The notes beneath the pieces are model-generated. The model was not told where the DNA came from, ran no database searches, and was given only the letters and a program-made list of their open reading frames with translations. The position numbers were made by a program, and so were the translations under genes. A stretch of DNA of 64,000 bases from an uncultured Lachnospiraceae bacterium (GTDB lineage Bacteria > Bacillota > Clostridia > Christensenellales > UBA1242): contig CAZSGM010000001.1 of the NCBI GenBank assembly GCA_964606505.1, forward strand, positions 18,859 to 82,858, written 5' to 3'. Shown here in pieces: positions 1 through 61,441 of the stretch. The stretch's first letter is position 1. Every line of letters begins with the position of its first letter.

Positions 1-599
1 AGTTGAGGATAGGTTGCCAAACTCACCTCATGCAAATTTCCCTCACTATCAAAAGCCCTGTCAATATGCATTTCTCCGTGCAAAAATGCCTTAAAGTCTC
101 TTTCAGTTACAACAAAATTAGCCATTTTTGACACAAGTACCTCATCGTGTTCCGACAAAGTGTGCGGAATTTCCTCAATAAACTTCTCGAATTCCAACTT
201 AAAGTCCGTAAACTTAGGGTTTGCTACAATACTCTTAAGATAGTCGACGCCTGCCAGCTTAAGTTCCTCATCAACAAAGCTACCAATTTCCAAGTAATCC
301 TGATAAACCTGCGAAACTTCGTCGTAAAGTTTTAGCGCATCGCTGTCGTTTGTGTCTAAGTCAAGTTTCAAAGCTGCATACGCCTGCAACGCATCAAATT
401 TGAGACAAATTTCATCGTCAAGTTTTTTATACTCAAGCAGTTTATCCTGATTACTTAATTGACCCTTGTAATTTTCAATTTGCTCCATCTGTTCTTCAAC
501 TTCATCAAGCGCCTCATAACACTCATCATCATTTGCGAAAAATTGCGACAAATCACATCTATATTTTTCGTCAATCTCGTCGCGCGATTTTAATACCAT
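1..599 (-). CDS. pepF: oligoendopeptidase F (M3B family), N-terminal part; gene runs off the window
   Basis: Not in the ORF track because there is no stop in the window. Minus-strand ATG at 597-599, preceded by AGGAG. Translation MVLKSRDEIDEKYRCDLSQFFANDDECYEALDEVEEQMEQIENYKGQL... resembles the PepF N-terminus as recalled. Confidence 0.7.
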   Translation of the reverse strand, partial: MVLKSRDEIDEKYRCDLSQFFANDDECYEALDEVEEQMEQIENYKGQLSNQDKLLEYKKLDDEICLKFDALQAYAALKLDLDTNDSDALKLYDEVSQVYQDYLEIGSFVDEELKLAGVDYLKSIVANPKFTDFKLEFEKFIEEIPHTLSEHDEVLVSKMANFVVTERDFKAFLHGEMHIDRAFDSEGNLHEVSLATYPQ

Positions 600-662
600 A
601 ATAACTCCTATTCCTATAAACTTTGCTGGTTGCACTCAAAAATGTTAAATATTTACACAAAA

Positions 663-1952
663 CTAAGGCAGCAATCTGTTTGGTCCACGGAAGATAAACA
701 TTGCTTCCTTAATCGTTGGAATATCCAACAATAACATTGTAATTCTGTCAAGTCCTAAACCAAAGCCGCCGTGTGGAGGGCAACCATATTTAAAGAATTC
801 AAGATAGAACTCAACGTCTTTCTTCAAGCCCTTCTCTTCTGCCTGCTCTTTCAAAATCTCGTACCTGTGCTCACGTTGTGCGCCCGTTGTGATTTCGACA
901 CCGCGCCAAATCAAGTCATAACCTTGAGGAACGCCGTCCTTTCTCATATGATAGAATGGACGCTGCTTGATGTCGTAATCTGTTACAAACATAAACTCAC
1001 TATTAAATATTTCTTGCGCGAGTTTAAACACTAACTTTTCAGCTTCAGTTGTAAGGTCTCCCTTTTCAATATCGTCGACAATGTAGTCGTATCTTTCCTC
1101 GAGCTCTTGGTAAACATCCTTAAGTTTCATTCTTGGGAACGGTGTTGTAGGGACAACGACTTCCACTCCAAACTCTTTCGCAATAACTTCGCCGTACTCT
1201 TCCTTTACGCATTTGAGCATATAGGTCAAAAGTTCCTCTTCAAGTTTCATAACATCTTCAAACGACTCAATGTAACTAAACTCTATATCAAAGCCTGTAA
1301 ACTCTGTCGCATGCCTTGATGTGTAACTTTGCTCTGCGCGAAAAACTGGGGCACACTCAAATATGCGCTCAAGCCCGCTTGCCATAGCCATTTGTTTATA
1401 AAACTGTGGACTTTGTGCGAGGTATGCCTTTTTGTCAAAATACTTAAGTTCAAAAACATCCGCACCACTCTCACTAGCCGTTGCGATTATTTTTGGCGTG
1501 TGAATTTCAACAAACTTGCGTTCAAGTAAGAAGTTTCTCAAAGCCTTTGTGCAGCAGGTTTGGATTTTGAAAATCAGCGACTTCTTTTCATCTCTTAAGT
1601 CAATCCAACGATAGTCAAGACGCATATCAATTGCGGTCGTTTCGTCAATCGGCGAAACCTCCGCCGCACTCTCAACAACTACACTTGTTGGTAAAATCTC
1701 CTTTCCGCCTGCCTTAACTGCAGGGTTTTCAACAACCTTTCCCTCGATTGTAACAACTGAGTTAACGTTCAACCCAGCAAAAATTTCAGCAATCTCAGGT
1801 TGCTCAGGTTTAACAACCGTAACTTGGATTTTTCCAGTTGTGTCTCTGACAACGATAAACTGCATAGTTTTTTGGTCGCGAATTTTATCTACGAAACCTT
1901 GAATTTTTTGCGTTTCGCCCGCTTTTGTTTCACTAATATAAGTTCTTTGCAT
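663..1952 (-). CDS. aspS: aspartate--tRNA ligase, archaeal/eukaryotic type (about 430 aa class IIb)
   Basis: 429-aa ORF. N-terminal OB fold plus class II motifs (FRAE, GGFGLGLDRITMLLL); its size and C-terminus fit type-2 AspRS rather than the 590-aa bacterial type. Confidence 0.85.
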   Translation of the reverse strand: MQRTYISETKAGETQKIQGFVDKIRDQKTMQFIVVRDTTGKIQVTVVKPEQPEIAEIFAGLNVNSVVTIEGKVVENPAVKAGGKEILPTSVVVESAAEVSPIDETTAIDMRLDYRWIDLRDEKKSLIFKIQTCCTKALRNFLLERKFVEIHTPKIIATASESGADVFELKYFDKKAYLAQSPQFYKQMAMASGLERIFECAPVFRAEQSYTSRHATEFTGFDIEFSYIESFEDVMKLEEELLTYMLKCVKEEYGEVIAKEFGVEVVVPTTPFPRMKLKDVYQELEERYDYIVDDIEKGDLTTEAEKLVFKLAQEIFNSEFMFVTDYDIKQRPFYHMRKDGVPQGYDLIWRGVEITTGAQREHRYEILKEQAEEKGLKKDVEFYLEFFKYGCPPHGGFGLGLDRITMLLLDIPTIKEAMFIFRGPNRLLP

Positions 1953-1984
1953 TTTGTTCTCCTAAATTTTAAAAATCTACCATT

Positions 1985-2013
1985 ATTATACCACAAAACC
2001 ACCGTTTTGGCAA
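1985..2013 (-). promoter_or_regulatory. SigA-type promoter of aspS
   Basis: On the minus strand: TTGCCA (2008-2013), a 17-nt spacer, then TGgTATAAT (-10 at 1985-1990). Confidence 0.6.
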
Positions 2014-2058
2014 ATGTTTGCATTAATTTTGTGTTATTACATTTCGCCTATCTAACAT

Positions 2059-2090
2059 AAAACAAGGCGCAAACCTTTTGCGCCCTGTTT
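2059..2090. repeat. 32-bp direct repeat copy 1 (hairpin GGCGCAA-ACCT-TTGCGCC, terminator-like)
   Basis: AAAACAAGGCGCAAACCTTTTGCGCCCTGTTT is identical to 6866-6897. Stem-loop flanked by A/T runs. Confidence 0.9.
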
Positions 2091-2140
2091 TTAGCTTATT
2101 GTAATACTTACAATTTCATTGTTTCAGTCATTGTGCCGAC

Positions 2141-2200
2141 CTAATTAGTAGTTGTTTCACTTACTTGATTAGTGGCTGTTACATTTACTCGATTAGCATT
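2141..2200. repeat. three degenerate ~21-bp tandem repeats (..T(A/G)ATTAG..)
   Basis: ctaattagtagttgtttcac / ttacttgattagtggctgttaca / tttactcgattagcatttc. Confidence 0.5.
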
Positions 2201-2273
2201 TCTTCATAATAACACAAAATGACACAAACTGCCATTGCGCACATTTTACGTTTTCAATCTCAATGTCAACCAA

Positions 2274-3824
2274 TTATACTTTAATACTATCTAGGAAGTT
2301 TTTTAAATTAGTTAAATCGCTATACGACAACTGAAAGACAAAATTTTCAGCGCAATTCGCGACTTGACTTTCAAAAAAACTAGCCCGCGCTTCATTTTTG
2401 GTTATGCCCAAAATTTTAGTTGCTACTGACACAAATGCGTTTTTAATGTTTGAATTTCTATATATGAGGACGCTCTTCATTGAGTTCTTAACGCTTTCCT
2501 TTAACGTAAATCTAATTAATTTAATGTTATTCAAAGTGTATTCAGTTAAATCGTACAACTCAAGAATAACGTCAAACCTCCCCGAGTACAACTCTTTTGC
2601 TTGTTCGCCAGTAAATACCCCATATTGCACATCTTTATTTGCCATTATCAGCGTTCTTAAATTCAACACATCTTTTAGTTGATATGTAAAATCTATTACA
2701 TAAACGCAATCTTGCGAGTGGCTGAGGGTTTTATTTTCTTTTTGCTTAAGGTAGTTAGATACTGACATTGAGTTGCCATCTTTTTCTTGTTTGTTAAGTA
2801 TAAATAATAAATTATTCTCATTCACTGCATCGTTTTTACATATATGCGACGCTATATCATTAAAATTAACGGCAACTTGGCTGCTGGCCTCTAATGACTT
2901 TTTGCCATGCGTATAAATGTCATACTCCTCGCTATATTCCAGTTTATCAAACGCTTTAGGTAAAATGTTGCAAACATAAAGGTCGCTTCTATAGCCTAGC
3001 GCTTCCGCTTTTTTATAGACATTAAAGTTTGCTATTATTTCCTTAAAGTATACAGAAAGTTTTTGCATAGCGCGTTGCACCTTGTAACCAATCGCGGGAG
3101 AAAGTTCAGCAGACTTATAACACAAGTATATTGTCGCAAATTTATCTTTGGAACATTCAATTGCGCGCAATAAAAATAACGACATCCCAACAGGCGTATA
3201 TGGAGGGTCAGTAAATACAACATCAAAACTTCTTTGAGCAGAAAGTGGACATCCCAACCTAAAATCACTATACAAAACCTTAATATTTAACTTGAAATCG
3301 CGTGCTGCTTGCGCAATAAAATTTAAGACGTCATCATCTATATCTAAAACTTCAATTTTATAATCATTAAACCCCACCTTACTCAACGTATACGCTAAAG
3401 CGATACTTGAAAAATCGTGGTCTCCTAAAAATAAAATTTTGCAGTTTGCAACATCGTGATTGTCAATAATATACTTCGCTCTCTTTACCAATGTTTCTGG
3501 AACCGCAGACACGTGGTCTAAATTCATTTTATGTTTGTCGAATTTAGAAACAATTTTTTCTATTTCCCCGCAAATACTCTCAAAATCAATCTCCTTGCCA
3601 CTAGCAAAATCACTTTGCAATAAATAGTCATCCCTAAACATGTAATGCTCGCCGGAAATTTCGCAATAATCATCCAAAACATCTTTTATAAACTTATATC
3701 CAACCCCCAATTCAAAGCAAAGCGAATGAATATTGTTGTGCTTTTTTGCCTCAGTCAAAATATTGATGGCAACCTTACTTAAACTGCCAAACTTTTCATA
3801 ACATTTTTCTCTTACATTTTCCAT
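2274..3824 (-). CDS. BpsA/DUF43-like Rossmann-fold transferase with an uncharacterised ~210-aa C-terminal extension
   Basis: The ORF-track start is TTG at 3842; ATG at 3824 has GAGG 6 nt upstream. Motifs ILFLGDHDFSSIALA, FDVVFTDPPYT and FNVYKKAEALGYRSD parallel the GDDDLTS / TDPPYT / FN.Y..AE motifs of the DUF43 branched-chain polyamine synthase family as recalled. Confidence 0.55.
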   Translation of the reverse strand: MENVREKCYEKFGSLSKVAINILTEAKKHNNIHSLCFELGVGYKFIKDVLDDYCEISGEHYMFRDDYLLQSDFASGKEIDFESICGEIEKIVSKFDKHKMNLDHVSAVPETLVKRAKYIIDNHDVANCKILFLGDHDFSSIALAYTLSKVGFNDYKIEVLDIDDDVLNFIAQAARDFKLNIKVLYSDFRLGCPLSAQRSFDVVFTDPPYTPVGMSLFLLRAIECSKDKFATIYLCYKSAELSPAIGYKVQRAMQKLSVYFKEIIANFNVYKKAEALGYRSDLYVCNILPKAFDKLEYSEEYDIYTHGKKSLEASSQVAVNFNDIASHICKNDAVNENNLLFILNKQEKDGNSMSVSNYLKQKENKTLSHSQDCVYVIDFTYQLKDVLNLRTLIMANKDVQYGVFTGEQAKELYSGRFDVILELYDLTEYTLNNIKLIRFTLKESVKNSMKSVLIYRNSNIKNAFVSVATKILGITKNEARASFFESQVANCAENFVFQLSYSDLTNLKNFLDSIKV

Positions 3825-3851
3825 AATCGACCTCAAATACAATTAAATGCA

Positions 3852-3881
3852 ATCAAGGATTGCAAAACTGCAATCCTTGAT
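3852..3881 (-). terminator. perfect 13-bp-stem hairpin between the precursor gene and the downstream transferase (attenuator or transcript stabiliser)
   Basis: ATCAAGGATTGCA-AAAC-TGCAATCCTTGAT. The weak T tract on the minus strand suggests partial read-through. Confidence 0.55.
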
Positions 3882-3895
3882 ATCAAAAACACAAA

Positions 3896-4012
3896 TTAGT
3901 TATTGTCTTCTCCTTTCTCGCCATATTCAGCTGAACCATTACGCTCGCCGTCTTGCGGTTTAGATTTTTTACTCATAGTAATTATTTCGATTTTTCCTAT
4001 TTTTTTAATCAT
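3896..4012 (-). CDS. candidate lasso-peptide precursor (38 aa)
   Basis: Below the ORF-track size cutoff. GAGGAGG lies 8 nt upstream of the ATG. Peptide MIKKIGKIEIITM/SKKSKPQDGERNGSAEYGEKGEDNN has Thr at -2, Ser1 and Asp8. It sits directly downstream of the B1 gene. Confidence 0.55.
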   Translation of the reverse strand: MIKKIGKIEIITMSKKSKPQDGERNGSAEYGEKGEDNN

Positions 4013-4059
4013 ATTGTGTTCCTCCTCTTTAGAAAGTATATCACCTGAAAAATAATATG

Positions 4060-4287
4060 TCAAGCGCTTTTAGTAAATATATCACATTCATAAAGTTCTT
4101 CTAATAACTCAATATCTTGATTTTGAGCATTAAAACAAACCTCTCTGCCTTTTGATTTTATCAAAGTAAATATTGGCAAATATTCATCCCCCAACAAATA
4201 AAATTCCCCAGAGTTGAAATCTAATATTACAACATTTTTATCTATAATAACAAAGCTAATATTTGTTGCAATACAAAAATTATACAT
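4060..4287 (-). CDS. PqqD-like RiPP recognition element (lasso B1)
   Basis: 75 aa. FVIIDKNVVILDFNSGEFYLLGDEY fits the PqqD beta-strand pattern. The start overlaps the cyclase stop (ATGTATAA). Confidence 0.65.
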   Translation of the reverse strand: MYNFCIATNISFVIIDKNVVILDFNSGEFYLLGDEYLPIFTLIKSKGREVCFNAQNQDIELLEELYECDIFTKSA

Positions 4288-6214
4288 TAATCACCTCAAC
4301 TTCCGACCTATCTTGCACCTTACTATGTATTTTACACTGTTCCAACATCCATTCTCGCCCCAAATGAATTTCCTTAAGCCATATTTCCAAATAAATCAAA
4401 TTATACATATATTTCATTGCTAAATTAGGCACAAAATGAGGATCAAAAATATTTAACAAAAACACTTCTAATTCGCGCAAAAACTCATCTCTTTTTACGA
4501 TCCCATATTTTGCCAAAAATAGTTCTTTATCGTCCCCCATAAGTTCAGCAAGATTTTTGCTCTCTTTTTTAAATTTTAAAACTATTGAAGGTGCATAATT
4601 TGTTTTGAACTTTTGTTCTGTTATTATATCTGGCAAAATATCTTTGTATGCTTCTCGCAAAACTCTTTTTTGTACATAATATGACCCAACATCACCCTTG
4701 CTTATGTCATAATGTATGTATGGCGGTATTTGTTGAGCTAAAGTATAAATTGATATATCTAACAATGGATGCACAAATTCATATCCATCATTTCGCTCAT
4801 CATCAACAATCCCCTTAGGAAACATGAAATCATAAGCAAATCTTCTAGCCCAAAACTTCAACACTTTACTGTCTCTATAATTATTCCCCTTTTGACTTTT
4901 ATTCGTTTTTTGCATTTCTTTCGTAAAAAATGACGGATACCCTACTTTGTCATCTTCTTTCCAATAATTTTTTCTATAATAGTAGTTATTCAAAAATGGA
5001 ATAAATTGAGCATATTTGTATAAATAATTATCCTTCTTTTGCTGTTTCATTATAGTTTTATGTGCCATAGCCTCTGAACGATTTCCACAATATTTAAACA
5101 CATCTTGACAATACCTAGTGCCCATAAATAGGTAATCTCCGCCATCCCCACCAAACAATAAAGAAACATTGTCCTTTTCTAATTCAGCAGATAAATGATA
5201 CGAGAAACTATCATTTCCTATACAACAAGGTCCGTTAATATTTTTAATATAATCACGCCCCATGACTGCATTGCATATAGAATTGCCACTATTTTGATAC
5301 AAAATTTTGCATTTTACTCCAAGTTTTTTTACTAACTTGCGCACTATTTCAGAATCATTACAACTAAAATATAAAGGATTATTAGATGTTGCATGATAAC
5401 ATATCACCCTGTCTTTATATCCCAAATCAATTAAAGATGCAAGTATAACTGCGGAATCAATGCCCCCACTTAATGAAACGCCTATTGAACCATCACCATA
5501 TGAAAGTACGAACTGATTAACAACACGGTTTAAAGTATCCCGAAACTTTTTATAGTATTGCTCCTTATCCGAAAAATTTAAGAATTCTCCATTGTAAAAA
5601 ATTGCATTGTCATATATGCTTTTATATTGAATATTCCCTTCTTTAATCTTACATTTTACACCATTGGGGATTTTTTTTATTCCACTAAAGTAAGTTTGAG
5701 TATCAAAATTTTCATTATTAACAAATAATTCAGTGTTGGTTAACTTGCACTTGTCAACATTTACTTTAATTGCAACCTCATCGCATAGTAACAATAATCT
5801 TATATCATTTGAAAAGAAAATGCCATCTCCGTTTGTATAATAAAAAAATGCATTAAACCCGTAATAATCATTAAAAATAGTAATTGAATTATCTTTGCTC
5901 GCCATTAACACCGTGTATCTTCCACTGCAACCACCCGTTTCTAATATATGCTCAATATTTTCAATATGATCAATACTATCATTGTTATAAAATTGTTCAT
6001 TATAAAAAACGCACCCATCAACACACATTTGCACCGTACAAATGCTTGCCGTTGATTTTTTTATATTTATATTCATCAAAAAAAACGAACTTTCACATCT
6101 ATTCAACTCTGACATGTCTTCAACAGAAAAATTTAGCCATGCTTTAACTTTTTTAAGCCAATCATTTTCAATTTTGTTTTTATTACGCCCCATATATCCA
6201 AAATAAAGTTCCAT
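4280..6214 (-). CDS. asparagine-synthetase-like lasso peptide cyclase (C protein)
   Basis: PP-loop VSLSGGIDSAV. No N-terminal glutaminase Cys2. The preferred start is the ATG overlapping the B2 stop (TAATG), with GGAG upstream. Confidence 0.8.
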   Translation of the reverse strand: MELYFGYMGRNKNKIENDWLKKVKAWLNFSVEDMSELNRCESSFFLMNINIKKSTASICTVQMCVDGCVFYNEQFYNNDSIDHIENIEHILETGGCSGRYTVLMASKDNSITIFNDYYGFNAFFYYTNGDGIFFSNDIRLLLLCDEVAIKVNVDKCKLTNTELFVNNENFDTQTYFSGIKKIPNGVKCKIKEGNIQYKSIYDNAIFYNGEFLNFSDKEQYYKKFRDTLNRVVNQFVLSYGDGSIGVSLSGGIDSAVILASLIDLGYKDRVICYHATSNNPLYFSCNDSEIVRKLVKKLGVKCKILYQNSGNSICNAVMGRDYIKNINGPCCIGNDSFSYHLSAELEKDNVSLLFGGDGGDYLFMGTRYCQDVFKYCGNRSEAMAHKTIMKQQKKDNYLYKYAQFIPFLNNYYYRKNYWKEDDKVGYPSFFTKEMQKTNKSQKGNNYRDSKVLKFWARRFAYDFMFPKGIVDDERNDGYEFVHPLLDISIYTLAQQIPPYIHYDISKGDVGSYYVQKRVLREAYKDILPDIITEQKFKTNYAPSIVLKFKKESKNLAELMGDDKELFLAKYGIVKRDEFLRELEVFLLNIFDPHFVPNLAMKYMYNLIYLEIWLKEIHLGREWMLEQCKIHSKVQDRSEVEVINV

Positions 6215-6705
6215 TATATATTCTCCAAACAAAATTTTTTAATAATATGATATTCTTTGTAATCAGTAAAATAATTTAATATTTGTTTATCTCCTACTTC
6301 TAACCAAGAATGAGATAGCACCTTTCCGTTTTCAATTTTAACCCCAACGATAATTTGAGAATCCTTATTGGAAAATATACATAACAAATGCGCCAACAAC
6401 GTTATACTTATACAACTTGAAACAATATTATTATGTAAATCTTGCTGCTGGATATATTTTAATATTTTTTTTATTTTCTTAATAGATAATCTACACAAAA
6501 ACTTATATTTATCAACTTTTTTACATAAGTTTAGAGATAGCGATTTAATTGTTTCTATGTATCCCATATTATAGATGGATGCTCTAATTATTTGGTGCAA
6601 CAAAACGCACTGCATTAAACTTGTTTTTATGTATTTCATAAGATCAATTCTAGCATTTCTTTTGCTGTTTGTCAAGTATTTGCCTGCTTTAAGGGTTTTT
6701 AACAA
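6214..6705 (-). CDS. transglutaminase-like cysteine protease (lasso B2); start uncertain (TTG in the track)
   Basis: SSCISITLLAHLL ... SHSWLEVGDKQIL matches the Cys ... HAWVE pattern of lasso leader peptidases. Confidence 0.7.
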   Translation of the reverse strand: MLKTLKAGKYLTNSKRNARIDLMKYIKTSLMQCVLLHQIIRASIYNMGYIETIKSLSLNLCKKVDKYKFLCRLSIKKIKKILKYIQQQDLHNNIVSSCISITLLAHLLCIFSNKDSQIIVGVKIENGKVLSHSWLEVGDKQILNYFTDYKEYHIIKKFCLENI

Positions 6706-6865
6706 GGCATTTCCACAGCATAAACTAACATTCTCAATGCAACCTTATAAAAAACATTTTCGATATAAATGGCTTTTTGAGTTTTGCTATTTATATTGCC
6801 ATAGTACTATGTTTACTAAAGCACTTTTGTTTCTCGATTTAAGCGACCATTGTACTTATAAAAAC

Positions 6866-6897
6866 AAAACAAGGCGCAAACCTTTTGCGCCCTGTTT
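6866..6897. repeat. 32-bp direct repeat copy 2 (terminator-like hairpin downstream of the MMPL gene)
   Basis: Identical to 2059-2090. Confidence 0.9.
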
Positions 6898-7026
6898 AAA
6901 ACGAGAATGATTGTATTGCTTTATGTTGTATTTTATATTTTTATCTGTTTTGTATTTTGAAAACAATACTATATTTTGTTTTATTGCTTATCTACACTAT
7001 GCGTTAAGACAAGCCAAATTTATTTG

Positions 7027-10000
7027 TTATTTTTTATCTTTTGTTTTGCTTGCAGTCTTGCTATTTGCGGATTTCTTTGAGGTCGTTTTGCTTTCCGCTT
7101 TAGAAGCCGACGTTTCGCTTTCCGCTTTGGTGGTGGCTGCTTTACTGTTTGTCCTTGCGGCGACTTTCTTAGTTTCTGCTTTTGCGGATGTTTTTACAGC
7201 TCCGCCTTTGCTTGTGGAAGTTTTTACGGGTTTTACGTCCGCGGTTTTATCTGTTCCCTTTTTGGTTTCAGCTTCGACTTCCACTTTGTCAGTTTTATTT
7301 GTTTTCTCTTCTGCAGTAGGCGTGCTGTCGCCCACGAGTGCGATAGCGTCGCCGCTTTCAAGTTGTGCAACTTCACTGCTTGCTACAGTTGGCGCACTCA
7401 CGAGTGGCACAAACTTAGCCTTTAAGGTTGTTTTCTCAATAAGTTTATCGAAAATCAACAAACATTGCGGCAATACAAACAGGATTGTCAACACTGACAA
7501 CAATGCACCGCGTCCAATTAAGTTTCCGATTGACCTAAGCAATGGGATTGTCGAAACCCAACTAATTGTAAACGCTGCAAGAACAAGGATTGTTCCACTT
7601 GTGATGATTGTAGTGAACGAGTTCCCAATCGCGGTTTTGATTGCCTCAAACTTGTTTTGCTTGCGGCGGGCAGTGAGATACCTATCGGTAAGCAAGATTG
7701 CGTAATCGATAGTTGCGCCCATTTGAATTGCCATTGCAAGCAAGTAGCAAATGAAGTAAACGCTGTCGCCCATTATGCTTGAAAGCCCGAGGTTAATCCA
7801 AATCGCGCCTTGAATTGCAAGTACCAAAATAACTGGAATACTTGCCGACCTAAATGTCAACAACACGATAAGGAAGATTAGCAAAATTGTTATGAGGTCA
7901 GTCTTTAACTTATCCGTACTAAACACTTCCATTGTACTTATAACATTCTCAGAGTTGCTAACAATATATGCACTTTCAAAATTCTCATTCAAATAATCTT
8001 GCAAGTCTCTGATAAAATCAAGTGCTTTTTCGTCTGCAACATCCAAATTCATATTGAAGAGCATTCTGTCGCAGTTTTCGCTAACGAGCATTTGTTCTGC
8101 GCTTGAAAGTGTAGCGTAGTAACCGTCAATTGTCGCCTGCTTAAATACCCCAATTTGTGTGCGGATTTCTTGGTTATTGTGCGCGTATTCCACAAACTGC
8201 AAGTTGTAAATTGTGCTGCTTGCGCTGCTAGCGTCTTGCCCATAGTAGGTAAACATTGCGCCAACTTGCGCCTGCGTTAAGCCATACTCACTGCAAATTG
8301 CTTGCGCTGTCAACTTACTAAACGCAGCCGTATTGTATGCGTCTGAAATTACTTCAACTTGGCTTCTACCCTCAACATCGTTTTCATAAATGTACGCCAA
8401 AATCTTGTAGTTTTGGACAGTGTCAGTATCTTGCAATGTATCGACACCTAAAATTGCCTTAAAGACGTTATTCATTGCGTCTTGGCTTGATAGCGCGTAG
8501 GTAGCCTGCGCTTGCGCCGCTGTCAATGCCACATACAAGTTGTTTGCGGCAATCTGCGCATAGAGGTTGTTGACTGTGGCTTCCGCCGCTGCAGGTAAAA
8601 CCGTTCTCTCCAAGTGGAGTGCGGTTACCACATCGGCAAGGTAAACGCTGTCCGTTGCAGGGTTTTTACCAAGCAAAGTAAACAGTCTATCAATTTTTGT
8701 AACAACTTCCGTATCCGCTTCGGTTACGCCGAACATAACCATAATTTGCGCTTTTGTCATCGTTTGCGCATAGAAGTCAGTTGTTGCAAGCGCGGTGCTT
8801 GAGTTTATGTAGTTTTGCTCAAACTTATCGGCGTCCGCGAAGTAATTGTTGATATATTCAACAAGCGCCCTTTCAGCCGCAACACCTGCGTCTCTATCGT
8901 CGTTTTTGCCGACCATAACTACTAGCGCATTTTGTTTGCCAAATGTTTCCTCAATCTTCGCTTGGTCAGTCGCTACAACCCCTGCACTTGAGCCGCTTTC
9001 AACGACGTAAGTGAAGTTGACGTTGCTTTCAAAATATAGACCGACGGCAACAATGCACAAAAACAGAATTGGCATAACAAAGCGCGTCTTTTTAGCAAAA
9101 GTTCCAATCTTATCCATTTTTGGCATAAAGCTGCGATGACGAGTTTTTTCAATTCCTTTCGCAAGCATCATAATTACGCTTGGCATAAAGAACAGAACCG
9201 CCAAAACGCCTATGAACACACCCTTCGCCAAAACCATACCGATATCGAACCCGATTGTGAAGTCCATAAACATCAACGCGACAAGCCCCGCGATAACCGT
9301 CAATGAACTTGCGACAATCGCAAGGAACGACCCCGCGAGTGCTTTAGTCATCGCTGTTTTTGCGTCAACACCCTTCTCCATTTCCTCACGGTATCTGTGG
9401 CAAAGCACGATACAGTAGTCCATAACAAGTGCAATCAACATAATCGAACTTATCGACTGTGTAACGCACGAAATCTCGCCCATCACAAGGTTTGTACCCA
9501 TATTGATGACAATTGAGCAGCCGATAACAATCAGGTAAACAAGCGGCTCGAGCCACGAACGCGACGTTAGGAACAAAACCAAAATTACAATCGCAACCGC
9601 AATCAACAGGATAATCATCAACTCCGAGCCAATCGCCTCTTGACTGCCCACGGTTTCAACCGCCGAACCGCCGAGCGCAAAGTCGTACCCGTCGAGGAAC
9701 GCCTTTAAGCTGTCTATCGACTCCTTAGTTTCGGGACTGTAATCGCTCTTTTCAAAGAAAACGCTCAAAAGTGCCTTGTTGTCTTTGTAGCACGCTTCTT
9801 TTTCTGCGTCAAATGAAATGCTTGCAACACCTGTAACGTCATCACTAGCCAAAATATCTTTAACCAGTTGAGTCGCGCCCTCTTTAGTTATGTTTTCAAC
9901 CATAATGCAGGCGGTTCCGCTTGCCCCAAATTCGTCCTCCATAACCTCAAGCGCAACTTTTGTACTTGAGTCGTTAGGAAGATACTTGGTAAAGTCGTAG

Positions 10001-18775: not shown

Positions 18776-18946
18776 TTCCATCCTCCTTACTATAGTATAC
18801 AAAAAACTCTATGCCTTGAGTGCATAGAGTATCATTGCGCAAAAACCCTGCGTTGTGCGCTTAATTTACCTACACATCTCCTCGGCAAGCTTGCTAGGCA
18901 ATTTGCGGGTAACCCCACTTGCTGTCTATGGCGATAGTTTCTTGTA
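18776..18946 (-). ncRNA. probable rplJ (L10) leader, an autoregulatory 5' UTR
   Basis: ~170-nt structured UTR between a near-consensus promoter and the rplJ SD (for example the hairpin CTCTATGCACTCAAGGCATAGAG). Family assignment rests on position only. Confidence 0.4.
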
Positions 18947-18952
18947 GGTAAT

Positions 18953-36239: not shown

Positions 36240-37115
36240 GTGTGTTATTTAAGTACTAATAATATGTTAAGCTTGTTTATTTAATTGTTACTCATAATTT
36301 AGTAAGTAATTTTATTTTATTTCAGCACTTACTTATAATCATTACTTAAATACTATTAATACAATCTTTACTTAATTATAATATATAATATTGCAAATAA
36401 TAAGTCAAGTAATTTTATATTATTAATTAATAATTATTTATTGTCTAAATTATTTTGGTTATACTAATATAATATTAAGTACTTTTATTAATGTTATACT
36501 TATTTTATTATAAGTACTAACTTAATACACTTACTTATTTTTTTATTCGTACTAATTATAAGGGGTTGCATAATGCAGCGTGCTATCGCTTTTTATACTC
36601 ATACAATATAGTGAGTAATTATACTTATATTTTTTACTTATAATATTATAAGTTAATATTAATTTTTATATTTAAAATAATATGCATATATAGTACTATT
36701 ATATTATTACTAATACTATATTAAGTATTAATATGTTTTGTTTACTTTAATAATAGATATTACTAAAAATATTAAAGTACTTATAAAATGTTAAGTATTT
36801 TATATATTATTTTGTTATTATATAATTATATAACGTATATATATTAATACTTATTATATTATAAAAACTATATTATTTATTATACTCATAATATAATAAG
36901 TACTTAATTATTATACTACTTATAATATTATATAAACTAACATATTACTGTATTTATAATATTATAAGTTTAGATATATAATTATATCTTTACTTAATAT
37001 AAGTACTAAAATAGATAAGTACTTACAATATTATAAGTACTTATTTTATTTAAGTACTAAAATAATATAACGTATTTAAATATATATTTATTCTTATTAT
37101 ATTATTAGTACTAAA
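36240..37115. repeat. AT-rich AGTACT-core iteron array, block 1
   Basis: AGTACT starts at 36252, 36478, 36513, 36692, 36776, 36899, 37002, 37018, 37036, 37053 and 37107, mostly within (A/T)TAAGTACT(A/T)A. Confidence 0.8.
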
Positions 37116-37494
37116 ATAAGACAATGGGCAAACAAAATGCCGACTAAATTTTGCCTGATACAGTTTTATTTGGTTCATATGCTTATTTTGTGTCTACTGC
37201 ACCATACCCATTTGCAACGGCGCACACGATGTCGTGGCAGATTATACCATACTCCATTGCGGTTATGCAATTATTTTCTGCGTTGCAATCAATTGCTGCA
37301 TTGTAACCAATCAACATACTACAACTAATCGGCGTACCGCAACCAATTATGGCAGCACAACTGATAGCCGAACTGACAACTAAACCGACAGATGAACTAA
37401 CAGTGAACCGACAGCTAAGTTACAATCAACTCCATGTTGTTGTTAGCAATCAAACTTAAATTAACTATTATGCGACAATTAACTATTCCGCGAT

Positions 37495-38200
37495 ACTTAA
37501 TTAAAATTTACATGCAACTTATTTTATAAGTAATAATAAGTTATTAGGTACAAATATTATTTAAGTACTTAACATATTATTTGTATTAGCTAATAGTAAT
37601 AGTTAAAAATATTATATGTACTTATTATATATGAGTAAATAAAATATTGTAATACAAATATAATGTGTTAACATAAATTATTTTGAGTATTAAATTAATA
37701 TTAGTACTTAAAATATTATTAAAAATAAAATAATATGTATAAGTCTATTATATTATCATAAAATTATTGGAGTACTAATAATAAAGTAAGTACTATTATT
37801 AAGTATAATAAATATTATTAGTACTAAAAAATTTATGTACTAACAATTTAATAAGTACTAAATTATGTAAATACTGATAAATTAATAAGTACTTAAATTA
37901 TATAAGTAAAAAAATGTAAAACGTACGAATTATACATAAGTACAAAAAATATATAACGTAATAATATTATATGATTACGAATAATATAGAATGAACTAGT
38001 ATAAATAAGTACTAATAACTTAATAAGTACTAAAATATTGTAGTACTAATAATAAAATAAGTACTACAACTAAATAGGTACTAGAAATATATTGATATAA
38101 TAATATATTGTACGTAAAAATGTTGTTCGTACTAGAAATTATAACACTAAAAATAGTTTAAGTACGTATAAATTAAATTAGTAATAAAATTATAAGTGCC
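37495..38200. repeat. AT-rich AGTACT-core iteron array, block 2
   Basis: AGTACT starts at 37564, 37703, 37771, 37789, 37820, 37854, 37888, 38008, 38026, 38042 and 38060. The site at 37560-37573, TTTAAGTACTTAAC, matches the palindrome at 13/14 positions. Confidence 0.8.
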
Positions 38201-53702: not shown

Positions 53703-53779
53703 CGCGGGGTAGAGCAGTTTGGCAGCTCGTCGGGCTCATAACCCGAAGGTCGTTGGTTCAAATCCAGCCCCCGCTACCA
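53703..53779 (+). tRNA. initiator tRNA-fMet (CAU)
   Basis: CGCGGGG acceptor with a 1-72 mismatch and three G-C pairs closing the anticodon stem (TCGGGCTCATAACCCGA). CCA encoded. Confidence 0.9.
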
Positions 53780-53789
53780 TTTTTTTTAT

Positions 53790-53866
53790 GGCGGTGTAGC
53801 TTAGCTGGTTATAGCGTCCGGTTCATACCCGGAAGATCAAAGGTTCGAATCCTTTCACCGCTACCA
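53790..53866 (+). tRNA. elongator tRNA-Met (CAU)
   Basis: GGCGGTGTAGCTTAGCTGG... with anticodon loop TTCATAC. Closely resembles Bacillus elongator tRNA-Met as recalled. CCA encoded. Confidence 0.8.
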
Positions 53867-53888
53867 GCGTGGGCGCATTGCCCAAGTT

Positions 53889-53963
53889 GGCCCTATGGTC
53901 AAGCGGTTAAGACACCACCCTTTCACGGTGGTATCGTGGGTTCGAATCCCGCTAGGGTCACCA
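53889..53963 (+). tRNA. tRNA-Glu (UUC)
   Basis: GGCCCTATGGTCAAGCGGTTAAGACACCACCCTTTCACGGTGG... Cloverleaf checked by hand. CCA encoded. Confidence 0.88.

Positions 53964-59611: not shown

Positions 59612-61441
<1,830 letters not shown>

Follow-up and report, generated by a model that had tools for sequence, protein, structure and literature searches.

A minus-strand open reading frame (ORF) at positions 3896–4012 of a 64,000-nucleotide stretch of DNA from an uncultured Lachnospiraceae bacterium (contig CAZSGM010000001.1 of assembly GCA_964606505.1; hereafter, the window) probably encodes the precursor peptide, A, of a compact five-gene lasso peptide island. The other four genes would supply a leader peptidase (B2), a macrolactam cyclase (C), a B1-like protein, and a transferase resembling the N4-bis(aminopropyl)spermidine synthase BpsA. 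Judged from its conservation, the ORF is a real precursor gene, and the chemistry of its product is predicted from homology: a 13-residue leader would be removed from a 25-residue core, and Ser1 of the core would be joined to Asp8. By its sequence, the window peptide is a divergent offshoot of the lariocidin/triculamin lineage and a nonmember of that family by curated criteria. The lariocidin-type lasso peptides form a class of antibiotics that target the ribosome and were discovered recently. The locus falls in a rare sister lineage, represented by about ten precursors and 17 cyclases among 5.8 billion proteins, in which the ring is kept and the loop, tail, and charge are changed.

The Precursor Gene and Its Family

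The ORF runs from an ATG at 4012–4010 to a TAA at 3896, and its retranslation, MIKKIGKIEIITMSKKSKPQDGERNGSAEYGEKGEDNN, matches exactly the peptide given in a preliminary description of this DNA. A Shine-Dalgarno sequence, AGAGGAGG, lies 8 nt upstream of the ATG, and gene callers report the identical peptide on four independent Logan assemblies. A profile of the precursor family retrieved eight distinct peptides from the 5.8 billion proteins searched. Two further precursors were found in fetched loci, which brings the family to ten, including the window (Table 1). When the five 38-residue orthologues are compared pairwise, 65–98% of the synonymous sites and 10–16% of the nonsynonymous sites are changed. 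The synonymous sites are saturated, and dN/dS is ≤0.12 wherever it is computable; despite this divergence, the peptides remain 74–84% identical. Saturated synonymous sites combined with low nonsynonymous change point clearly to long-term purifying selection on the ORF as a protein. The preliminary description had left room for a different small ORF as the true substrate. However, when the lasso precursor rules (Thr at −2, a small first core residue, and an acidic residue between +7 and +9) are applied to the cluster strand of the island, 3896–4012 is the sole ORF that obeys them. A longer, 55-residue version starting at a TTG was rejected because this TTG is the −35 box of the precursor promoter and because stops occur there in loci L011 and L017.

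Table 1. Precursor peptides of the family, divided at the predicted cleavage site
Precursor	Leader	Core	Leader length (aa)	Core length (aa)
Window	MIKKIGKIEIITM	SKKSKPQDGERNGSAEYGEKGEDNN	13	25
L006	MIKKAGKIEVITM	GKKSKPQDGERNGSAEYGVKGESDN	13	25
L011	MIKKVGKIEDITM	SKKSKPQDGERSGSAEYGDKGISNN	13	25
L017	MIKKIGKIEIITM	SKKSTPQDGEREGSAEYGVKGMSNN	13	25
L020	MIKKIGKIEIVTM	SKKSTPQDGERSGSAEYGVKGDNNY	13	25
L022	MKTIKELGKINEITL	SKKSKPEDGCGNGNQQCGVKGE	15	22
L013a	MKKVGIVKVGKITQITL	SKKSHPGDGTNNCGVRGMQKI	17	21
L013b	MKKTIKRIKVGKIEKLTL	SKKSVPADGETHNGYNYGCKAMSKI	18	25
P0128	MKLLEFSIVKVGNIQNLTL	SKKSTPGDGTHACGKKGGSRT	19	21
L021	MIKNLDQPKTKSKDKFEKIGKIEKITK	SKKSHPGDGSWGNGVKGGNW	27	20

The window peptide and the nine precursors from other loci share the motif [IV]GKI[ET]xxT[MLK] at the end of the leader, followed by [SG]KKSxPxDG at the start of the core. 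Thr(−2), Lys2, Lys3, Ser4, Pro6, Asp8, and Gly9 are invariant in all ten. Core position 1 is Ser in nine precursors and Gly in one, and both residues are permitted at lasso position 1. In the window peptide, the residues that satisfy the lasso rule are T12, S14, and D21. The cleavage after Met13 proposed earlier, with Thr at −2 and a small residue at core position 1, thus agrees with the whole family. The same holds for Asp8 as the ring acceptor: this residue lies within the invariant KKSxPxDG block, and a ring between residue 1 and Asp8 has been solved in lariocidin and gelatinamin. Invariance of Thr(−2), Ser/Gly1, and Asp8 across the precursors strongly supports the Ser1–Asp8 register, with the cleavage site and ring as predicted here.

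The leader was noted earlier as unusually short, and its length proves to be real. An in-frame stop lies one codon 5′ of the MIKK start in L011 and L017; the leader is therefore exactly 13 residues long rather than an artifact of start-codon choice. Leaders of the relatives span 13 to 27 residues, and the last 9–10 residues are kept throughout. Because the longer leaders (15–27 residues) retain these same final residues, the window leader is essentially a bare recognition and cleavage motif. At 13 residues it has no room for the Y(−17), P(−14), and L(−12) of the classical YxxPxL motif, which canonical triculamin-like leaders are likewise reported to lack (PMC12070363). The searchable literature held nothing usable on the minimal length of a lasso leader. 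A 13-residue leader made up almost entirely of a 9-residue motif would represent a minimal recognition sequence distinct from YxxPxL, which would be useful for engineering.

The core had been described as hyper-charged, with 12 charged residues. The high charge stands, but a recount gives 11: K2, K3, K5, D8, E10, R11, E16, E19, K20, E22, and D23, of which five are basic and six acidic. The predicted net charge of the mature window lasso is approximately −1, within a family range of −1 to +4. Treating such a charged core as an oddity is only partly justified: the ring has precedent in lariocidin/triculamin-like peptides, whereas the acidic tail is unusual and lineage-specific. The calculated mass of the core minus H2O is 2705.23 Da. 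A position-by-position alignment with gelatinamin would place Tyr17-Gly18-Glu19 inside the ring and Lys20 beneath it, and the role of Tyr17 as a plug, raised in the preliminary description, is plausible by this analogy.

Relationship to Lariocidin, Triculamin, and Gelatinamin

Lariocidin has a Ser1–Asp8 ring with Lys2, Pro6, and Gly7 (PMC11451635). Gelatinamin has an Ala1–Asp8 ring through which R13-G14-V15 thread, and its Lys16 is acetylated by a resistance GNAT (PMC13178200). The window peptide shares with the lariocidin/gelatinamin/triculamin group an 8-residue ring from residue 1 (Ser/Ala/Gly) to Asp8, with Lys2, Pro6, and a Gly after the Asp. The group's tail motif, G-V-K-(K/R)-G, is retained in the form x-G-x-K-G (Y17-G18-E19-K20-G21). 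Short leaders with Thr at −2 that lack YxxPxL are also held in common, as is the separation of B2 from B1 (here a presumed one) found in Bacillota-type clusters. L013a, one of the relatives, can be aligned with gelatinamin residue by residue (x13-G14-V15-R16-G17).

The window peptide also departs from this group in several respects. Its loop is four residues longer, and it carries a C-terminal EDNN extension. An almost invariant PGDG around the ring Asp and many basic residues are defining features of the lariocidin/triculamin family (PMC12070363). Within the present family, PGDG occurs in L013a, P0128, and L021, PADG in L013b, and PEDG in L022; the window peptide has PQDG, as do the four relatives closest to it. 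Lariocidin-type peptides bind the ribosome, and contact with the rRNA backbone is attributed to their polycationic core; the window core, with its predicted net charge near −1, is not polycationic. The gene content differs as well. Lariocidin/triculamin clusters carry GNAT self-resistance and ABC exporter genes, in some cases along with one for a clostripain-like transpeptidase. None of these was found in the island (2054–6897) or beside the clusters in L006, L011, L013, and L022, and the window cluster has the BpsA-like gene instead. Against the NCBIfam lariocidin/triculamin models NF050021, NF050022, and NF050031, the window peptide scores 16.8, 15.2, and 15.6 bits (cutoffs of 40, 27, and 65), and the match is limited to the ring region from the −1 residue through Gly9. 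Three relatives, L013a (30.7 bits), P0128 (27.6 bits), and L021 (28.3 bits), pass NF050022 over the full length of the model.

Predicted Genes for Leader Removal and Ring Closure

The five genes occupy approximately 4.8 kb in the order B2, C, B1-like, A, and BpsA-like transferase (Table 2), and the island is small enough for direct cloning. B2 matches PF13471 (Transglut_core3) with 31.5 bits against a cutoff of 26, and the Cys...His-x-Trp...Asp pattern of a transglutaminase-like protease is visible in its sequence. Because a candidate operon promoter sits within the longest B2 ORF, the true start is probably the ATG at 6639; the homologues are 134–155 residues long. The S-G-G-I-D-S of the cyclase PP-loop is invariant in 15 homologues. 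The cyclase matches the NCBIfam lasso cyclase model lass_lactam_cya weakly (47 bits, cutoff 525), and it therefore belongs to a divergent clade. Its close homologues number approximately 17 in the protein set searched above. A scan of GTDB genomes returned only one distant Asn-synthase-like locus, from Bacteroidota. A cyclase-profile scan of JGI metagenomes returned mostly generic Asn synthases, with L022 the one useful locus.

The B1-like gene encodes a 75-residue protein, and its position is conserved in all loci. A profile built from six orthologues was compared with 177,635 PDB sequences, and the top two matches, at weak E-values, were the lasso B1 proteins TbiB1 (5V1U, E = 0.067) and TfuB1 (6JX3, E = 0.28). 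A single-sequence AlphaFold 2 (AF2) model has a predicted local distance difference test (pLDDT) score of 56, too low for use. The protein is treated here as a presumed divergent B1, which would act as the recognition element for this ribosomally made, post-translationally modified peptide (RiPP).

The arrangement resembles that of paeninodin-type Bacillota clusters, in which A, B1, B2, and C are likewise separate genes. The paeninodin leader ends in Thr-Met before the core. In contrast to those clusters, the island has the order B2-C-B1-A and lacks a kinase, a nucleotidyltransferase, and an ABC transporter. Its 13-residue leader also has the [IV]GKI[ET] motif in place of the aromatic-xx-Pro motif that binds the RiPP recognition element (RRE). 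Rfam searches gave no match in the island, and PADLOC gave no match for any island protein.

Table 2. Features of the island
Feature	Position	Strand	Remarks
37-nt direct repeat, upstream copy, with GC-rich terminator hairpin	6861–6897	−	14-bp stem and T-run; terminates the MMPL gene; left island edge
B2, leader peptidase, transglutaminase-like Cys protease	6214–6705	−	PF13471; longest ORF 163 aa
Candidate operon promoter	6647–6675	−	TTGACA-17-TAGAAT with TG; consensus match only, 11/12; inside longest B2 ORF
C, lasso macrolactam cyclase, Asn-synthase-like	4280–6232	−	PF00733, 4.8e-21; PP-loop SLSGGIDS
B1-like 75-aa protein, presumed RRE	4060–4287	−	Overlaps end of C; stop overlaps −35 box of A promoter
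Precursor promoter	4035–4063	−	TTGACA-17-TATACT, extended −10 TG; −35 box overlaps stop of B1-like gene
A, precursor gene	3896–4012	−	13-aa leader MIKKIGKIEIITM and 25-aa core SKKSKPQDGERNGSAEYGEKGEDNN; predicted Ser1–Asp8 ring
13-bp RNA hairpin between A and BpsA-like gene	3852–3881	−	Arms 3881–3869 and 3864–3852; loop GUUU
BpsA-like 516-aa protein	2274–3824	−	N-terminal winged helix, Rossmann transferase domain, extra C-terminal α/β domain of ~200 aa
37-nt repeat, downstream copy, with terminator hairpin	2054–2090	−	Right island edge; aspartyl-tRNA synthetase promoter follows

The BpsA-like Partner Enzyme

The fifth gene encodes a protein that matches PF01861 (BpsA_C) with an E-value of 2.3e-32 and 112.6 bits (cutoff 27). 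Its AF2 model has a pLDDT of 90.2, and the C-terminal α/β domain (approximately residues 310–516) is confidently folded. The best PDB matches by sequence and fold are 2QM3 and BpsA (5XNC), followed in Foldseek by N-methyltransferases such as METTL5. The gene lies in the same operon at seven loci (the window, L006, L011, L013, L017, L020, and L022). These include clusters with a different gene order and a cyclase only 27–36% identical (27% in L022). This co-inheritance indicates that the gene is not incidental. Its start overlaps the end of B1 in L013, and in L022 it directly follows B1. The sole related cluster without it is L021, which has an ABC transporter and a β-lactamase-family protein instead.

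In BpsA, Asp159 and Asp160 of the GDDD motif are essential (PMC12979288). An alignment with 5XNC shows that the equivalents of Asp160, Asp225 (of DPP), Glu259, and Tyr290 are retained in the window enzyme, whereas Asp159 is replaced by His. The enzyme and BpsA (EC 2.5.1.128; 5XNC, 6J27; PF01861) thus share the N-terminal and Rossmann domains and the amine-activating residues D225, E259, and Y290. However, the window enzyme has GDHD rather than GDDD and DPPY rather than DPPE, and a folded domain of approximately 200 residues stands where BpsA has a flexible, acidic C-terminal carrier tail. Its gene lies inside a RiPP operon, and the host is apparently not a thermophile-type polyamine producer. 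The altered motifs are common to the relatives of the enzyme, GDHD being present in 114 and DPPY in 116 of its 120 best homologues. An exhaustive search found 568 clusters (50% identity) at E ≤ 1e-10, and about a dozen among the best hits listed match over nearly the full length. The searchable literature yielded no paper linking this family to lasso peptides. An RRE fused to the enzyme was considered and rejected, since the N-terminus is a helix-helix-helix-strand-strand winged helix as in BpsA, not a strand-first RRE. Distant GDHD/DPPY proteins were also seen elsewhere: at L014 8001–9593, in a cluster with nonribosomal peptide synthetase, radical-SAM (S-adenosylmethionine), carbamoyltransferase, and Orn/Arg-decarboxylase genes, and at L015 8001–9659 (Actinoalloteichus), beside an OpuA-type ABC transporter.

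The protein is presumed to be an N-alkyl (aminopropyl or methyl) transferase that acts in tailoring or immunity. The acidic residue retained in its GD-x-D motif favors decarboxylated SAM as the donor, whereas DPPY favors N-methyl-type transfer onto an amine. The juxtaposition of its gene with B1 favors action on the precursor. In contrast, the intact copies in L007 and L012, which stand without B2-C-B1-A, favor an immunity-like or independent role. A more specific proposal, which we regard as speculative and on balance doubtful, is that the GDHD/DPPY protein is a new RiPP enzyme that places aminopropyl groups on lysines of a lariocidin-type lasso. Such groups would either make a neutral scaffold cationic and target-competent or provide alkylation-based self-immunity. 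Should the enzyme modify the peptide, it would introduce a new post-translational modification of lasso peptides. This could also be the first function assigned within the several-hundred-member, uncharacterized “bis-aminopropyl spermidine synthase family”.

Expression Signals around the Precursor Gene

The precursor gene has its own promoter, which is kept in five loci at the same position; TTGACA is invariant and is accompanied by TG and a −10-like box. The perfect 13-bp hairpin noticed in the preliminary description is present and starts 14 nt past the stop codon. Its minimum free energy is −21.3 kcal/mol (z = −3.5), and none of 200 shuffled sequences folds as well. The hairpin occurs in the window, L006, L011, and L017, and compensatory double changes affect 4 of its 13 pairs. 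In L020, a different, weaker hairpin follows the precursor gene. The earlier suggestion that the hairpin raises precursor stoichiometry is partly supported: conservation with covariation and the presence of a dedicated promoter fit such a device. The tail past the stem is U-rich but interrupted. Because this tail is not a clean U-run, action as a leaky terminator or 3′ stabilizer is a role that we infer for the hairpin.

Similar stem-loops follow RiPP precursor genes in other systems, such as capistruin (between capA and capB) and lanthipeptides (after the lanA genes). As in those systems, a stable hairpin comes directly after the precursor gene and before an enzyme gene, and the window hairpin shows covariation. 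It differs from them in its lack of a clean U-tract and in being paired with a dedicated internal promoter before A.

Proposed Pathway and Alternative Explanations

These observations allow us to outline a probable pathway. The precursor gene would function as a high-output mini-cistron, with its own σ70-type promoter, a strong ribosome-binding site, and the downstream hairpin. The hairpin most likely restricts read-through into the next gene or shields the 3′ end of a short mRNA. The B1-like protein would bind the conserved leader segment [IV]GKI[ET]xxT[MLK], which makes up nearly the entire 13-residue leader here, and B2 would cleave after Met13. The cyclase would then use ATP to activate Asp8's side chain and join it to the amine of Ser1, forming the 8-residue macrolactam SKKSKPQD. 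The tail would be threaded around Tyr17-Gly18-Glu19, and Lys20 would lie beneath the ring. The resulting ring would be homologous to that of lariocidin, triculamin, and gelatinamin, with a loop four residues longer and a neutral to acidic tail. The BpsA-like enzyme most likely alkylates a peptide amine, the candidate sites being Lys2, Lys3, or the tail residue Lys20. An aminopropyl group from decarboxylated SAM is slightly favored over a methyl group from SAM. This step would serve in tailoring or self-protection, in place of the GNAT acetyltransferase of lariocidin-type clusters.

Several observations weigh against this pathway. The cleavage, ring, and threading are predictions from homology. 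B2 reaches 26.5 bits with the NCBIfam model lasso_biosyn_B2, below the cutoff of 33. The B1-like protein has no Pfam or NCBIfam match even at E = 10, and the E-values linking its profile to TbiB1 and TfuB1 (0.067 and 0.28) are weak. The window peptide lies below the cutoff of all three curated lariocidin/triculamin models, and genes for an exporter, a GNAT, and a clostripain-like protein are missing from the island. The U-run after the hairpin is not a clean one, and A occupies a different place in the operons of L013 and L022, where no equivalent hairpin accompanies it. Members of the wider BpsA-like family are also found in non-lasso contexts, so that a peptide substrate is only presumed. 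In addition, the variants seen in the population point to a dispensable or decaying system. The cyclase is frameshifted in L001. The L017 BpsA-like gene has lost 41 nt and is thereby divided into 76 and 410 residues while the biosynthetic genes are intact, and strains L007 and L012 keep the BpsA-like gene only.

Other explanations were weighed. The locus could encode a plain lariocidin/triculamin member, a cationic ribosome-binding antibiotic produced and employed as lariocidin is, beside which the BpsA-like gene is incidental. The ring SKKSxP(G/Q/A)DG and the tail G-V-K-G match that family, three relatives pass NF050022, and short leaders without YxxPxL are typical of canonical triculamin-like clusters. 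However, the window peptide scores only 15.2, 16.8, and 15.6 bits where 27, 40, and 65 are needed, and it has PQDG instead of PGDG. Its predicted net charge of −1 runs counter to the polycationic hallmark, and the GNAT, ABC transporter, and clostripain-like genes are missing. Together with the co-inheritance of the BpsA-like gene at seven loci, these differences make plain membership unlikely. A peptide that is the right precursor but is cyclized in another register, or at another acceptor, is highly improbable. The segment GERNGSAE formally yields Gly1 and Glu8, but it lacks Thr at −2, as the preliminary description pointed out. The family comparison led to rejection of this register: ERNGSAE belongs to a loop that L013a and P0128 do not have, and it differs in L022 and L021. 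The Ser/Gly1...Asp8 pairing, in contrast, is invariant in all ten precursors and homologous to the solved rings of lariocidin and gelatinamin.

The two remaining explanations draw on the disrupted and partial loci. Under one of them, the island would be silent or in decay, the ORF having been kept by recent descent only, and no lasso peptide would be made in this organism. The frameshifts in the L001 cyclase and the L017 BpsA-like gene, the loss of B2-C-B1-A in L007 and L012, the want of an exporter, and the low GC content and bracketing repeats of the island are in line with this view. It is nonetheless quite improbable, given that the window, L002, L006, L011, L013, and L022 each have the five genes in intact form. 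Peptide identity of 74–84% persists through saturated synonymous divergence, and the promoter, ribosome-binding site, and hairpin are conserved. The other explanation is that the BpsA-like protein leaves the peptide alone and shields the producer through a change to the target, for instance, by N-methylation of an rRNA base. N-methyltransferases whose substrates are exocyclic or side-chain amines have the DPPY motif, and the best Foldseek matches after BpsA include the rRNA methyltransferases METTL5, RsmG, and RlmG, as well as PrmA. The peptide's relatives target the ribosome, and the intact gene persists in L007 and L012 without B2-C-B1-A. The closest relatives in sequence and structure, however, are the BpsA aminopropyltransferases, and the amine-binding residues are kept. 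The likeness to rRNA methyltransferases is that of a generic Rossmann fold, and the family occurs in unrelated contexts. The disruption of the gene in L017, where the biosynthetic genes are intact, also argues against this explanation, and we judge target modification to have a rather low probability. The five-gene lasso pathway, with A at 3896–4012, is thus the explanation that we consider probable.

Island Boundaries, Variants, and Other Features of the Window

The island has a GC content of 31.1%, versus 38.2% for the window and 39–46% for the flanks. The two 37-nt repeat copies are identical at 35 of 37 positions, are spaced by 4807 nt, and bracket the whole island. This pattern suggests either the trace of an inserted island or the duplication of a terminator. 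Logan contig L002 matches 2061–6895 at 100% identity, with the repeat at both of its ends; the syntenic L006 is without the repeat. A 24-nt tandem repeat (2.2 copies, 82% matches) lies at 2144–2196, between the stop of the BpsA-like gene and the downstream terminator repeat.

Two links to neighboring genes were considered and rejected. The MMPL gene is not taken as a dedicated exporter because it is cut off from the island by a terminator and is missing from the nonsyntenic loci. The C-terminal Asn, the neighboring aspartyl-tRNA synthetase gene, and an aminopropyl-type enzyme had suggested a microcin C-like link, which was set aside because the synthetase gene has its own promoter past the island terminator. 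The synthetase gene adjoins the cluster only in the syntenic L006, not in L011, L013, L020, or L022, and there is no ThiF/MccB-like gene.

The related loci vary in several ways. The L001 contig is 99.9% identical to L002 and the window apart from one indel, which breaks the cyclase into 195 and 375 residues and reflects either population-level pseudogenization or an assembly error. L007 (1–1460) and L012 (1–1150) have the upstream flank of L017 without B2-C-B1-A; the junction lies within the hairpin that follows the precursor gene, in its 3′ arm, and the BpsA-like gene remains intact. These orphan transferase copies could be immunity-like remnants. L013 has two tandem precursor genes at 2387–2655, one of which passes the lariocidin/triculamin core model (30.7 bits). 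The second is divergent, with PADG and a longer loop, and both contain Cys. This cluster adjoins a restriction-modification system and a serine recombinase. In the L021 cluster (148–7047), the cyclase is 34% identical, and the precursor joins a 27-residue leader to the core SKKSHPGDGSWGNGVKGGNW; in place of the BpsA-like gene of the other clusters, this one carries genes for an ABC transporter and a 671-residue β-lactamase-family protein.

Elsewhere in the window, AT-rich arrays of ~34-nt units (8–9 copies, ~64% matches) with AAGTACT cores occupy 36450–38105. Repeats of 9, 18, and 27 nt at 59810–60852 are rich in GGn-GAn-AAn, of the kind that encodes collagen-like G-X-Y. Housekeeping context is provided by a ribosomal protein L10 leader (RF00557, 55 bits) at 18791–18949 on the minus strand and by three tRNAs at 53703–53960.

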